Assembly: GCF_051903065.1 (NCBI RefSeq)
Contig: NZ_CP178438.1
Source of the DNA: Escherichia coli
GTDB taxonomy: Bacteria > Pseudomonadota > Gammaproteobacteria > Enterobacterales > Enterobacteriaceae
Strand: one strand, 5' to 3'
Length of the DNA: 64,000 nucleotides
In this document: one piece after another, positions 17,865-28,314 of the stretch
Layout: every line of letters starts with the position of its first letter
Position numbering within the stretch: position 1 is the first letter of the stretch
The notes under the pieces: model-generated
Told to the model about the DNA's origin: nothing
The model's input: only the letters and a program-made list of their open reading frames with translations
Database searches by the model: none
Position numbers and translations under genes: made by a program

Positions 17865-19523
17865 ATGAATGCGACTGCAGCCCAGACAAAATCTCTTGAG
17901 TGGCTTAATCGCCTGCGTGCGAATCCGAAAATTCCATTGATTGTTGCCGGTTCCGCGGCAGTGGCGGTCATGGTCGCACTGATCCTGTGGGCGAAAGCCC
18001 CCGACTACCGCACATTATTCAGCAATCTTTCCGATCAGGATGGTGGCGCAATCGTCAGCCAACTGACGCAAATGAATATTCCTTACCGCTTCAGCGAAGC
18101 CAGCGGCGCTATTGAAGTTCCGGCAGATAAAGTTCACGAGCTGCGTCTGCGCCTGGCGCAACAAGGTTTGCCCAAAGGCGGCGCGGTCGGTTTCGAACTA
18201 CTCGATCAGGAAAAGTTTGGTATCAGCCAGTTCAGCGAACAGGTGAATTATCAGCGGGCGCTGGAAGGCGAGCTTTCTCGTACCATCGAAACTATTGGCC
18301 CGGTAAAAGGGGCGCGCGTACATCTGGCAATGCCGAAACCGTCTTTATTCGTCCGTGAACAAAAATCCCCTTCTGCATCGGTGACGGTAAATCTGTTACC
18401 CGGCCGCGCACTCGATGAAGGGCAAATTAGCGCCATTGTGCATCTGGTTTCCAGCGCCGTTGCTGGTCTGCCGCCGGGAAACGTCACGCTGGTGGATCAG
18501 GGCGGACATCTGTTAACCCAGTCCAATACCAGCGGGCGCGATCTTAATGACGCTCAATTGAAATATGCCAGCGATGTCGAAGGCCGTATTCAGCGGCGTA
18601 TTGAAGCAATCCTGTCGCCTATTGTTGGTAACGGTAATATTCACGCCCAGGTCACGGCGCAACTGGACTTCGCTAGTAAAGAACAAACGGAAGAACAGTA
18701 TCGCCCTAACGGTGATGAATCTCATGCGGCGCTTCGTTCACGCCAGCTTAATGAGAGCGAGCAAAGCGGTTCCGGTTATCCGGGCGGCGTACCGGGGGCG
18801 TTGTCGAATCAACCGGCACCTGCGAATAACGCGCCAATCAGCACGCCTCCGGCAAATCAAAATAACCGCCAGCAGCAGGCGAGTACCACCAGCAATAGTG
18901 GGCCGCGTAGCACACAGCGGAATGAAACCAGTAACTACGAAGTCGATCGCACCATTCGTCATACCAAAATGAACGTGGGCGATGTGCAACGTCTGTCAGT
19001 CGCGGTTGTGGTGAATTACAAAACCTTGCCAGATGGCAAACCGTTGCCTCTCAGCAACGAACAGATGAAGCAAATTGAAGATCTGACCCGCGAGGCGATG
19101 GGCTTTTCTGAAAAACGCGGTGACTCGCTCAATGTCGTTAACTCGCCGTTCAATAGCAGTGACGAAAGCGGCGGAGAACTGCCGTTCTGGCAACAGCAAG
19201 CGTTTATCGATCAGTTGCTGGCTGCCGGTCGCTGGTTGCTGGTACTGCTAGTGGCGTGGCTGCTGTGGCGGAAAGCGGTACATCCGCAGCTAACACGTCG
19301 CGCTGAGGCGATGAAAGCTGTACAGCAACAGGCGCAGGCCCGTGAGGAAGTGGAAGATGCGGTGGAAGTCCGCCTGAGCAAAGACGAACAACTACAACAA
19401 CGGCGCGCTAACCAACGACTGGGTGCAGAAGTCATGAGCCAGCGTATCCGTGAAATGTCTGATAACGATCCGCGCGTGGTGGCGCTGGTCATTCGCCAGT
19501 GGATAAATAACGATCATGAGTAA
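17865..19523 (+). CDS. fliF: Flagellar MS-ring protein
   Basis: 552-aa ORF with two transmembrane segments flanking a large periplasmic domain. Confidence 0.95.
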
Positions 19524-20511
19524 CCTGACAGGCACCGATAAAAGCGTCATCCTGCTGATGACCATTGGCGAAGACCGGGCGGCAGAGGTGTTCAAGCACC
19601 TCTCCCAGCGCGAGGTGCAAACCCTGAGCGCTGCAATGGCGAACGTCACGCAGATCTCCAACAAGCAGCTAACCGATGTGCTGGCGGAGTTTGAGCAAGA
19701 AGCAGAACAGTTTGCCGCACTGAATATCAACGCTAACGATTATCTGCGTTCGGTATTGGTGAAAGCCCTTGGCGAAGAGCGTGCCGCCAGTCTGCTGGAA
19801 GATATTCTCGAAACCCGCGATACCGCCAGCGGTATTGAAACGCTCAACTTTATGGAGCCGCAGAGCGCCGCCGATCTGATTCGCGATGAGCATCCGCAAA
19901 TTATCGCCACCATTCTGGTGCATCTGAAGCGCGCTCAGGCCGCCGATATTCTGGCGTTGTTCGATGAACGTCTGCGCCACGACGTGATGTTGCGTATCGC
20001 CACCTTTGGCGGCGTGCAGCCTGCCGCGCTGGCGGAGCTGACCGAAGTACTGAATGGCTTGCTCGACGGTCAGAATCTCAAGCGCAGCAAAATGGGCGGT
20101 GTGAGAACGGCAGCCGAAATTATCAACCTGATGAAAACTCAGCAGGAAGAAGCCGTTATTACCGCCGTGCGTGAATTCGACGGCGAACTGGCGCAGAAAA
20201 TCATCGACGAGATGTTCCTGTTCGAGAATCTGGTGGATGTCGATGATCGCAGCATTCAGCGTCTGTTGCAGGAAGTGGATTCCGAATCGCTGTTGATCGC
20301 GCTGAAAGGGGCCGAGCAGCCACTGCGCGAGAAATTCCTGCGCAATATGTCGCAGCGTGCCGCCGATATTCTGCGCGACGATCTCGCCAACCGTGGTCCG
20401 GTGCGTCTGTCGCAGGTGGAAAACGAACAGAAAGCGATTCTGCTGATTGTGCGCCGCCTTGCCGAAACTGGCGAGATGGTAATTGGCAGCGGCGAGGATA
20501 CCTATGTCTGA
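19516..20511 (+). CDS. fliG: Flagellar motor switch protein FliG
   Basis: 331-aa ORF overlapping the fliF 3' end by 8 nt. Confidence 0.95.
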
Positions 20512-21190
20512 TAATCTGCCCTGGAAAACCTGGACGCCGGACGATCTCGCGCCACCACAGGCAGAGTTTGTGCCAATAGTTGAGCCGGAAGAAACCATCA
20601 TTGAAGAGACCGAACCCAGCCTTGAGCAGCAACTGGCGCAACTGCAAATGCAGGCCCACGAGCAAGGTTATCAGGCGGGGATTGCCGAAGGTCGCCAGCA
20701 AGGTCATAAGCAGGGCTATCAGGAAGGCCTGGCTCAGGGGCTGGAGCAAGGTCTGGCAGAGGCGAAGTCTCAACAAGCGCCAATTCATGCCCGGATGCAG
20801 CAACTGGTCAGCGAATTTCAAACTACCCTTGATGCACTTGATAGTGTGATTGCTTCGCGCCTGATGCAGATGGCGCTGGAGGCGGCACGTCAGGTCATCG
20901 GTCAGACGCCAACAGTGGATAACTCGGCACTGATCAAACAGATCCAACAGTTGTTGCAGCAAGAACCGTTATTCAGCGGTAAACCACAGCTGCGCGTGCA
21001 CCCGGATGATCTGCAACGTGTGGATGATATGCTCGGCGCTACCTTAAGTTTGCATGGCTGGCGCTTGCGGGGCGATCCCACCCTCCATCCTGGCGGCTGT
21101 AAAGTCTCCGCCGATGAAGGCGATCTCGACGCCAGTGTCGCCACTCGCTGGCAAGAACTCTGCCGTCTGGCAGCACCAGGAGTGGTGTAA
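20504..21190 (+). CDS. fliH: Flagellar export ATPase regulator FliH
   Basis: ORF trimmed to [10 protein letters not shown] (228 aa); overlaps the fliG 3' end. Confidence 0.9.
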
Positions 21191-22563
21191 TGACCACGCG
21201 CCTGACTCGCTGGCTAACCACGCTGGATAACTTTGAAGCCAAAATGGCGCAGTTGCCTGCGGTACGTCGCTACGGGCGATTAACCCGCGCTACCGGGCTG
21301 GTGCTGGAAGCCACCGGATTACAATTGCCGCTCGGCGCAATCTGTGTCATTGAGCGCCAGAACGGCAGCGAAACGCACGAAGTAGAAAGCGAAGTCGTTG
21401 GCTTTAACGGTCAACGGCTGTTTTTAATGCCGCTGGAGGAAGTCGAAGGTGTCCTGCCCGGCGCGCGTGTTTATGCCAAAAACATTTCGGCAGAAGGGCT
21501 GCAAAGCGGCAAGCAGTTGCCGCTCGGTCCTGCGTTATTAGGTCGCGTTCTGGACGGCAGCGGTAAACCGCTCGATGGCCTGCCCTCCCCCGATACGACG
21601 GAAACCGGTGCGCTGATTACCCCGCCATTTAACCCGTTGCAACGTACACCGATTGAACATGTGCTGGACACCGGCGTGCGCCCAATCAATGCCCTGCTTA
21701 CCGTTGGGCGTGGGCAGCGTATGGGGCTGTTTGCCGGGTCCGGCGTTGGTAAAAGTGTGCTGCTGGGGATGATGGCACGTTACACCCGCGCCGATGTCAT
21801 TGTCGTAGGTTTGATTGGTGAACGTGGGCGCGAAGTAAAAGATTTTATTGAGAACATCCTCGGTGCCGAAGGGCGTGCACGCTCAGTGGTGATTGCCGCT
21901 CCGGCGGATGTTTCTCCGCTCCTGCGAATGCAGGGTGCCGCCTATGCCACGCGCATTGCCGAAGATTTTCGCGATCGTGGTCAGCATGTGTTGCTGATTA
22001 TGGACTCCCTCACCCGCTACGCGATGGCCCAGCGTGAAATTGCGCTGGCGATTGGCGAACCACCCGCCACCAAAGGTTATCCACCGTCGGTGTTTGCCAA
22101 ATTACCGGCACTGGTCGAGCGTGCCGGAAATGGCATTAGCGGCGGCGGCTCGATTACCGCGTTTTATACCGTGCTCACTGAAGGCGATGACCAGCAGGAT
22201 CCGATTGCCGACTCCGCGCGGGCGATCCTCGACGGTCACATTGTGCTGTCTCGCCGACTGGCGGAAGCCGGGCACTATCCGGCTATCGATATTGAAGCGT
22301 CGATCAGCCGCGCAATGACGGCGTTGATCAGTGAGCAACATTACGCGCGAGTGCGCACCTTTAAACAGCTGTTGTCGAGTTTTCAGCGTAACCGCGATCT
22401 GGTTAGCGTCGGCGCGTATGCCAAAGGCAGCGATCCGATGCTCGATAAAGCCATCGCCCTGTGGCCGCAGCTGGAGGGCTATTTACAACAAGGCATTTTT
22501 GAACGTGCGGACTGGGAAGCGTCTCTCCAGTGGCTGGAGCGTATTTTCCCGACAGTATCATAA
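21190..22563 (+). CDS. fliI: Flagellum-specific export ATPase FliI
   Basis: 457-aa ORF with Walker A GSGVGKS; F1/T3SS ATPase family. Confidence 0.95.
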
Positions 22564-27242: not shown

Positions 27243-27251
27243 AGAGGCAAA

Positions 27252-27521
27252 ATGACACCTGAATCGGTCATGATGATGGGGACTGAAGCGATGAAAGTCG
27301 CGCTGGCACTGGCTGCCCCGCTATTGTTGGTAGCGTTGGTCACGGGCCTTATCATCAGTATTTTGCAGGCCGCCACCCAGATTAACGAAATGACGCTGTC
27401 GTTTATTCCGAAAATCATCGCCGTATTTATTGCCATTATTATTGCCGGACCGTGGATGCTCAATCTGTTGCTGGATTACGTCCGCACCTTGTTCACTAAC
27501 CTGCCGTATATCATCGGGTAG
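27252..27521 (+). CDS. fliQ: Flagellar export apparatus protein FliQ
   Basis: 89-aa membrane ORF. Confidence 0.9.
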
Positions 27522-27528
27522 CCGTACT

Positions 27529-28314
27529 ATGTTGCAGGTGACAAGCGATCAATGGCTTTCCTGGCTAAGTCTGTACTTCTGGCCGTTACTGCGCGTGCTG
27601 GCGCTCATTTCTACCGCGCCAATTCTGAGCGAACGCAGCGTGCCGAAGCGGGTAAAACTGGGGCTGGCAATGATGATCACGTTCGCCATTGCCCCATCAT
27701 TACCTGCCAACGATGTTCCTGTTTTTTCGTTCTTTGCTCTGTGGCTGGCCGTGCAGCAGATCCTGATCGGCATTGCGCTTGGTTTCACCATGCAATTTGC
27801 CTTTGCCGCTGTGCGAACCGCTGGCGAAATTATCGGTCTGCAAATGGGGCTGTCATTTGCGACATTTGTCGATCCGGCCAGCCATCTTAATATGCCCGTT
27901 TTAGCGCGTATCATGGATATGCTGGCGTTACTGCTGTTCCTGACATTTAACGGTCATTTATGGTTGATTTCACTGCTGGTCGATACCTTTCACACCCTGC
28001 CGATTGGTGGCGAACCGTTGAACAGCAATGCGTTTCTGGCACTCACCAAAGCAGGGAGTTTGATTTTCCTTAACGGGCTGATGCTGGCGTTACCGCTCAT
28101 TACTCTGCTGCTGACCCTGAATCTGGCATTAGGTTTACTGAATCGTATGGCCCCGCAATTATCCATTTTTGTTATTGGATTTCCATTAACTCTGACTGTC
28201 GGTATCTCTTTAATGGCGGCATTAATGCCGTTAATTGCGCCTTTTTGCGAACATTTATTCAGTGAGATGTTTAATTTGCTGGCTGATATTATTAGTGAAT
28301 TGCCATTAATATAA
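27529..28314 (+). CDS. fliR: Flagellar export apparatus protein FliR
   Basis: ORF trimmed to [13 protein letters not shown] (261 aa). Confidence 0.9.

Follow-up and report, generated by a model that had tools for sequence, protein, structure and literature searches.

The fli junctions and their gene boundaries

Our subject is the junctions between neighbouring genes of the flagellar operons fliFGHIJK and fliLMNOPQR of Escherichia coli, which lie in a 64,000-nucleotide (nt) stretch of DNA, hereafter the window. Bases 1-48314 of the window match the chromosome of E. coli strain 23CRST027 at 100% identity with zero mismatches, and the 8.8-kb stretch between the start of fliG and the stop of fliR (19516-28314) was matched in 5259 of 5426 complete E. 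coli genomes. With fliE divergent, the genes run fliF-G-H-I-J-K and fliL-M-N-O-P-Q-R along a single strand, as in class 2 flagellar operons. Their DNA is 98.6% identical to that of E. coli K-12, whose operons (b1938-b1950) have identical genes and order and identical distances from F/G to Q/R (-8, -8, -1, +18, -4, +104, +4, -4, +2, -1, +9 and +7, overlaps being negative).

A first-pass annotation had claimed that neighbouring fli genes overlap or abut, that this supports the chosen gene boundaries, and that it indicates translational coupling. We compared the boundaries with the PGAP annotation and the curated K-12 record NC_000913.3, and read the junctions base by base (Table 1). The description of overlapping or abutting genes held in outline, except for three of the quoted forms (H/I, N/O and O/P). 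Six junctions overlap: F/G and G/H by 8 nt, J/K and M/N by 4 nt, and H/I and O/P by 1 nt. The 8-nt fliF/fliG overlap (ATGAGTAA), the fliG/fliH overlap (ATGTCTGA) and the 4-nt overlaps at J/K and M/N (ATGA) were found as described, as were those of fliS/fliT and yedE/yedF elsewhere in the window. At fliH/fliI, where ATGA had been given, the overlap exists as TAATG; the letters ATGA are present, but the TGA is not the fliH stop. The overlap at fliO/fliP is likewise real, as TGATG, and contains no ATGA. An ATGA overlap at fliN/fliO is contradicted by both PGAP and the curated K-12 record, which have a 2-nt gap, and a 1-nt overlap arises there only with an unconserved GTG at 26137. Five junctions had gone unmentioned: fliI/J (+18), fliK/L (+104), fliL/M (+4), fliP/Q (+9) and fliQ/R (+7).

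The boundaries themselves were right, since the junctions are identical in PGAP and NC_000913.3, with agreeing start positions, and in 80 Enterobacteriaceae species the homologous starts are retained. For this family survey, 13 Fli proteins were mapped onto the 80 species loci (FliG 91-100% identical); the upstream stop was unambiguous, the downstream start was placed by homology, and the species counts range from 68 to 80 per junction. The fliK and fliO starts were refined separately; taking the first start codon over-called -1 overlaps at fliO, where it picked the GTG, and homology-based placement was preferred. In 68-80 species an ATG is conserved at the annotated position, and at most junctions the protein alignment begins within residues 1-3; sequence comparison thus supports trustworthy gene boundaries in the window.

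Several longer starts offered by the mechanical list of open reading frames were considered and rejected. The codon matching TTG 20483, upstream of fliH, reads TCG in 22 species, and in 4 it is the stop TAG, while the frames upstream of fliM (TTG 24621) and fliR (TTG 27430) are closed by stops in 49 of 73 and 52 of 69 species. The GTG at 26137, which would give fliO a 1-nt overlap with the fliN stop, is not conserved across species, and the conserved fliO ATG (MKTQ...) aligns with window position 26140. Large fliJ/fliK distances in the survey were a tblastn artefact of the divergent FliK N-terminus, the ATGA context being present. The fliI reading frame has one codon more in the window and K-12 (…GTA TCA TAA, 22555-22563) than in two other E. 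coli-labelled genomes (…GTG TGA; L003 and L004), and the fliI/fliJ spacing is therefore +18 rather than +21.

Salmonella is known to produce two forms of FliO. At a Salmonella arizonae locus (L024) the fliN/fliO junction reads TAATGATG, with two adjacent ATGs of which the first overlaps the fliN stop. The window also has two adjacent in-frame starts at the fliN stop, GTG-ATG rather than ATG-ATG, the first codon being GTG in E. coli and ATG in S. arizonae. Tandem starts of Salmonella fliO, with the products FliO-L and FliO-S, were reportedly described by Schoenhals, Kihara and Macnab in 1998. A GTG at codon 21 of the window gene (26200) corresponds to an in-frame GTG that lies 60 nt past the start codon in Salmonella and that we take to be where the short form (FliO-S) begins; the window codon, however, has no Shine-Dalgarno sequence (SD), and this Val codon varies synonymously in other genera.

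Ribosome-binding sites and conservation of the junctions

SDs were scored by the energy of their duplex with the 16S 3' end, every position in the two operons serving as background. Those of fliH, fliI, fliJ, fliK, fliN, fliP and fliQ fall in the top 1-5% of this background, with energies of -6.5 (fliH), -7.0 (fliI), -6.3 (fliK), -5.9 (fliN) and -7.4 kcal/mol (fliP). By the same measure fliG has no usable SD (-3.1 kcal/mol, 32nd percentile), fliM (+0.3 kcal/mol, 82nd percentile) and fliO (-1.9 kcal/mol) have none, and that of fliR is weak (-3.8 kcal/mol). All four SD-poor genes begin -8 to +7 nt from the upstream stop. The same division holds across species: fliG, fliM, fliO and fliR lack an SD or have a weak one in 88-97% of them, and the other seven genes have a strong one in 86-100%.

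Predicted start-region accessibility is high at fliK, fliN (96th percentile), fliQ and fliL, and mildly low at fliH, fliI and fliP (14th-24th percentile, fliH at the 14th) and at fliO (up to the 26th). Strong structural masking of downstream start regions was not found by this prediction in either operon, none lying below the 14th percentile; with accessibility only mildly low, there is no strong case for masking. By these measures independent initiation appears weak at fliG, fliM, fliO and fliR (SD absent or weak) and partly so at fliH, fliI and fliP (mildly masked). Strong, open SDs would give fliK, fliN, fliJ and fliQ the capacity for independent initiation.

Across Enterobacteriaceae the junctions split in two, locked and drifting. 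Phase and distance are conserved at G/H (-8 in 79 of 80 species), H/I (-1 in 79/79), J/K (-4 in 72/73 after refinement), L/M (+4 in 73/73), M/N (-4 in 71/73) and O/P (-1 in 68/69). F/G overlaps in all 80 species, at -8 (56), -4 (15) or -11 (9); here the fliF stop shifts while the fliG ATG stays in place. Conserved phase or distance was not seen at I/J (mostly +12 to +24 and never overlapping, a few larger values being unchecked), N/O (-1 to +9 in nearly all species, +20 in one), P/Q (+8 to +14) or Q/R (+2 to +11), and the K/L gap drifts between 97 and 249 nt. The 4-nt fliL/fliM spacer keeps its length across species while its sequence varies, which points to selection on spacing and not on sequence. 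In eight loci of Buttiauxella, Cedecea and related genera (L072-L076, L078, L079 and L082), fliQ and fliR share a 4-nt ATGA overlap, a within-family case of a short spacer becoming an overlap at an SD-poor junction.

For more distant taxa, a FliG homologue search gave only relatives at least 87% identical, and plasmid and chromid records were used instead. The resulting sample comprised two informative clusters, Ralstonia (F/G -4, H/I -11, G/H +35, J/K +20) and Rossellomorea (G/H -8, M/Y -4, O/P -8, F/G +19); Azospirillum fliG was an orphan gene. Medians over 1,695 species are available (Huber et al. 2023, Tables S4 and S5): FliG-H -8 (n = 659), FliH-I -4 (n = 672), FliM-N -3.4, FliO-P -3.4 (n = 574), FliF-G +2, FliQ-R +7 (n = 777), FliI-J +12, FliP-Q +12 and FliL-M +13 (n = 584). 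The nine comparable window junctions correlate with these pan-prokaryote medians (Spearman rho 0.72, P = 0.027), so that the choice of junctions prone to overlap is broadly common to bacteria, with lineages differing individually.

Among the 2987 unidirectional gene pairs of E. coli, 707 (24%) lie within -8 to +6 nt, the commonest distance being -4, followed by -1 and -8 (Huber et al. 2023). Eight of the 11 within-operon fli junctions fall in this range (binomial P = 8e-4 against the 24% of all pairs). Ten lie between -8 and +9 nt, inside the roughly -8 to +10 nt that we took as close for co-directional genes, the exception being fliI/J at +18.

Table 1. Coordinates of the fli genes, their junctions and further features, in window positions.
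Feature	Position	Strand	Evidence	Remarks
fliF (MS-ring protein), first gene of fliFGHIJK	17865..19523	+	PGAP, K-12	strong SD, -7.2 kcal/mol
fliF/fliG overlap, 8 nt	19516..19523	+	base-by-base reading	ATGAGTAA; fliG without usable SD
fliG	19516..20511	+	PGAP, K-12	
fliG/fliH overlap, 8 nt	20504..20511	+	base-by-base reading	ATGTCTGA; SD GAGGA within fliG
fliH	20504..21190	+	PGAP, K-12, conservation	start ATG 20504
fliH/fliI overlap, 1 nt	21188..21192	+	base-by-base reading	GTG TAA TG, common base 21190; SD AGGAG
fliI	21190..22563	+	PGAP, K-12	
fliI/fliJ spacer, +18 nt	22564..22581	+	base-by-base reading	own SD AGGAG
fliJ	22582..23025	+	PGAP, K-12	
fliJ/fliK overlap, 4 nt	23022..23025	+	base-by-base reading	ATGA; SD GAGGAAA within fliJ
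fliK, last gene of fliFGHIJK	23022..24149	+	PGAP, K-12	
fliK-fliL gap, +104 nt	24150..24253	+	base-by-base reading	operon boundary; sigma-28 -10 element GCCGATAA at 24217-24224
fliL, first gene of fliLMNOPQR	24254..24718	+	PGAP, K-12	
fliL/fliM spacer, +4 nt	24719..24722	+	base-by-base reading	CGAC; fliM without SD
fliM	24723..25727	+	PGAP, K-12, conservation	start ATG 24723
fliM/fliN overlap, 4 nt	25724..25727	+	base-by-base reading	ATGA; strong accessible SD
fliN	25724..26137	+	PGAP, K-12	stop TAG ending 26137
fliN/fliO junction, 2-nt gap	26135..26142	+	ATG 26140 annotated	TAGTGATG, TAG TG ATG; no SD
fliO	26140..26505	+	PGAP, K-12	start ATG 26140; in-frame GTG 26200 = codon 21
fliO/fliP overlap, 1 nt	26503..26507	+	base-by-base reading	TGATG, common base 26505; SD GGGAG
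fliP	26505..27242	+	PGAP, K-12	
fliP/fliQ spacer, +9 nt	27243..27251	+	base-by-base reading	own SD GAGAGG
fliQ	27252..27521	+	PGAP, K-12	
fliQ/fliR spacer, +7 nt	27522..27528	+	base-by-base reading	fliR SD weak
fliR	27529..28314	+	PGAP, K-12, conservation	start ATG 27529
fliS/fliT overlap, 1 nt	8375..8379	+	base-by-base reading, K-12	TGATG, common base 8377
yedE/yedF overlap, 4 nt	12143..12146	+	base-by-base reading, K-12	ATGA; strong SD AAGGAG
Frameshifted DUF5503 pseudogene	13882-15017	-		yedL-fliE island
GNAT fragment	15369-15698			yedL-fliE island
Leucine-rich-repeat protein, intact, 379 aa	15836-16975	-		yedL-fliE island
Integrase remnant	17190-17297			yedL-fliE island

Probable translational coupling and its alternatives

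Coupling at overlapping or abutting junctions of this sort is textbook knowledge, and the arrangement is common in bacteria. We consider it likely that the fli junctions are normal, conserved intercistronic junctions of class 2 operons that permit coupling, and that their overlapping or near-touching arrangement probably links the translation of neighbours. With a downstream start within a few nt of the upstream stop, a ribosome ending one gene could begin the next, and this shared passage would link the output of neighbours whose products assemble together. The first-pass claim that the overlaps indicate coupling is plausible from other E. coli pairs, but it does not apply uniformly, as fliK and fliN could initiate independently.

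Three kinds of junction may be distinguished. At the first, very close and SD-less (fliG at -8, fliM at +4, fliO at +2 and fliR at +7), translation most likely requires the ribosome of the upstream gene to terminate and reinitiate, and these four genes are the best candidates for obligatory reinitiation. The second combines an overlap with an SD lying in the upstream gene (fliH, fliI, fliK, fliN and fliP); such genes can be started by reinitiation as well as de novo, and at the mildly structured start regions of fliH, fliI and fliP the upstream ribosome may also unmask the start. The third is formed by short spacers that carry an SD themselves (fliJ and fliQ), from which these two genes probably initiate largely on their own.

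The anatomy of the junctions, the gene boundaries, the SD pattern and the conservation were established directly from sequence; coupling itself is inferred, from experiments on other genes. Native E. coli pairs with 4-nt overlaps were coupled in four of five cases, with a steep loss with distance (Huber et al. 2019, 2023), and reinitiation in tested pairs amounted to 30-95% of native at a 2-nt gap and was largely lost by 38 nt (Huber et al. 2023). In the flagellar regulon, coupling has been shown experimentally for the che genes, with strengths of 0.2-0.6 (Lovdok et al. 2009). Also in favour are the conserved distances, the constant length of the L/M spacer, the SD pattern, the correlation with the pan-prokaryote medians and the complexes formed by the products.

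Several points weigh against coupling at the fli junctions. Coupling was absent from one of the five E. coli overlaps put to the test, bioB/F (Huber et al.), and ribosome profiling led Saito et al. 2020, as cited by Huber et al. 2023, to conclude that coupling in E. coli does not work predominantly through reinitiation. A literature search found no experiment on fli-junction coupling and no fli ribosome-profiling data. The fliK and fliN start regions are open with strong SDs, and masking at fliH, fliI and fliP is mild. The flagellum contains about 100 FliN per 34 FliM, a ratio that 1:1 reinitiation alone cannot supply and that needs extra independent initiation at fliN. Junctions differ in distant lineages (G/H at +35 in Ralstonia, F/G at +19 in Rossellomorea), and two reading frames force part of the sequence conservation within overlaps. 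Finally, against a within-operon baseline of 40-50%, our estimate rather than a computed value, the enrichment of close junctions is marginal (P only 0.03-0.11). The fli packing is thus at the tight end of normal and no anomaly; the operons are tightly packed, yet in the normal range for complex-encoding operons.

The upstream ribosome might instead act mainly by melting mRNA that hides the downstream SD, a fresh ribosome then initiating. This is established for atpHA, according to a citation in Lovdok et al. 2009, and the starts of fliH, fliI and fliP, which have strong SDs, are less accessible than most operon positions. Such a mechanism would leave the SD-less fliG, fliM, fliO and fliR unexplained, masking is mild even at the least accessible starts, and fliK, fliN and fliQ are open; we regard it as possible but rather unlikely as a replacement for reinitiation.

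We think it improbable that the overlaps are neutral by-products of compaction, arising through stop drift and the A/T/G make-up of the junctions (ATGA, TAATG, TGATG) and tolerated unused, with each gene initiating alone. The three positions of the fliF stop (-4, -8 and -11) against a fixed fliG ATG, and the shift of fliQ/fliR between +2 to +11 and -4 within the family, are what drift would produce, and the altered junctions of Ralstonia and Rossellomorea, good SDs on seven of 11 downstream genes and the conclusion of Saito et al., as relayed by Huber et al., agree with it. Five junctions, however, show no change of phase or length over 68-79 species while adjacent spacers gain indels, and in the L/M spacer length is preserved though sequence is not. 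Four genes without a usable SD would, moreover, have no independent route to initiation, and the 4.5-fold enrichment of complex subunits among overlapping or close E. coli pairs (Huber et al. 2023) also argues for use of the junctions.

That wrongly called starts create some of the overlaps, the true starts lying downstream and clear of them, is very improbable: although the FliH (.2) and FliO (.4) proteins of NC_000913.3 are revised records, Salmonella has two FliO forms and the fliN/fliO overlap first proposed is absent from the reference annotation, the annotated ATGs are conserved with aligning N-termini at most junctions, downstream candidates are far (at least 30 nt for fliG) and not conserved, upstream ones are broken by stops in other species, and the SD motifs of fliH, fliI, fliK, fliN and fliP are correctly spaced.

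Flagellar complexes, neighbouring features and known systems

The products of these genes form well-characterised complexes. FliF and FliG occur at about 34:34, FliF-C co-folds with FliG-N, and functional fusions of the two exist; FliH2-FliI and FliM-FliN are complexes, FliO is a transient scaffold for FliP, and the last three proteins form FliP5Q4R1. Set beside these pairs, the F/G junction has no SD at -8, H/I an SD at -1, M/N a strong open SD at -4 and O/P an SD at -1, while the FliP/FliQ/FliR ratio of 5:4:1 goes with an own SD at +9 (P/Q) and a weak SD at +7 (Q/R). The fit of junction type to the known ratios is suggestive, though not uniform, FliI:FliJ being 6:1 despite a strong fliJ SD.

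A more speculative proposal, which we hold to be unlikely, is that the conserved mix of junction types is a translational code for basal-body assembly, in which an SD-less abutting junction would oblige the ribosome that has just finished one subunit to make the next in place, and SD-bearing or spaced junctions would set ratios. Nascent FliG-N would then emerge by the just-released C-terminal tail of FliF, giving 1:1 co-translational assembly in cis; extra de novo initiation would yield about three FliN per FliM, and inefficient reinitiation at +7 with a weak SD one FliR per four FliQ. In Table S2 of Huber et al. 2023, E. coli fliF/G, fliH/I, fliO/P, fliP/Q and fliQ/R are marked 'CMPLX not' and fliS/fliT (-1) 'CMPLX yes', while in the cross-species Table S5 several of these COG pairs are classed as complex. 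Because well-documented fli complexes carry the former label, the 4.5-fold enrichment in E. coli is probably an underestimate; and with E. coli F/G, H/I and P/Q/R scored as not complex, we found no sign that a link between junctions and assembly had been examined for the flagellum.

Public databases also hold E. coli FliG-FliH fusion proteins of 552-557 aa (P0003, P0018, P0019, P0026 and P0029), which parallel the classic functional FliF-FliG fusions. P0003 has an in-frame deletion over the fliG stop and fliH start (…GEDTY joined to WKTW…) and P0018 a frameshift indel just before the junction. These two fused open reading frames do not come from wild-type sequence, and the fusions may be real variants or assembly errors.

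The fli overlaps are already known, being present in the reference annotation, with the K-12 distances tabulated pair by pair in Table S2 of Huber et al. 2023. As a discovery the initial observation carries little weight; it holds in outline, errs on three details and is ordinary. Mildly new are the family-wide split of the junctions (locked or drifting, SD-less or SD-bearing) and the hypothesis on subunit ratios and FliF-FliG assembly in cis; the locked and drifting classes yield testable predictions on the translational setting of flagellar subunit ratios. Any deletion or refactoring of the fli operons must keep the junctions, foremost fliF/G, fliL/M, fliN/O and fliQ/R, which need most care because their downstream gene lacks its own ribosome-binding site.

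At the operon boundary, the fliK-fliL gap contains just the -10 element of a sigma-28 promoter, some 30 nt ahead of fliL, and fliLMNOPQR is listed as a transcription unit in Table S3 of Huber et al. 2023. The window has a single exact match to the full sigma-28 consensus (TAAA-N15-GCCGATAA), which lies at 6467-6493, some 40 nt ahead of fliD. At the operon boundaries, simple scans for sigma-70 promoters and terminators, which did not extend to FlhDC sites, gave no hits, as expected of a tool that does not cover these promoter types.

Differences from K-12 are otherwise at strain level. The fliD/fliS spacer is +15 in the window (7952-7966) and +24 in K-12, and the fliD and fliC lengths also differ, which is consistent with a different H-antigen region. 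The variable yedL-fliE island (13882-17297; Table 1) is unlike that of K-12, where the interval holds only the yedN pseudogene and intG. Further co-directional overlaps occur at dcm/vsr (20 nt, 35607-35626), tcyL/tcyN (4 nt, 694-697) and hprR/hprS (1 nt, 42855), and msrP/msrQ abut at 0 nt (45185-45186); convergent overlaps join yedP/dgcQ (4 nt, 30959-30962) and yedA/vsr (12 nt, 35156-35167).

A known parallel is provided by the termination-reinitiation pairs of Huber et al. 2019 and 2023. The same distance classes (-4, -1 and -8) dominate in E. coli and in prokaryotes, SDs are embedded in the upstream gene, and the products form complexes. The fli pairs, however, are tabulated in that work whereas the tested pairs were others, and four fli genes have no SD, while SD removal lowered reinitiation in four of the five tested E. 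coli pairs. The chemotaxis operons of E. coli studied by Lovdok et al. 2009 belong to the flagellar regulon too, and are polycistronic with interacting products. In contrast to the class 2 operons studied here, they are the class 3 meche and mocha operons, and the benefit proposed for their coupling is the reduction of signalling noise rather than the assembly of a structure.

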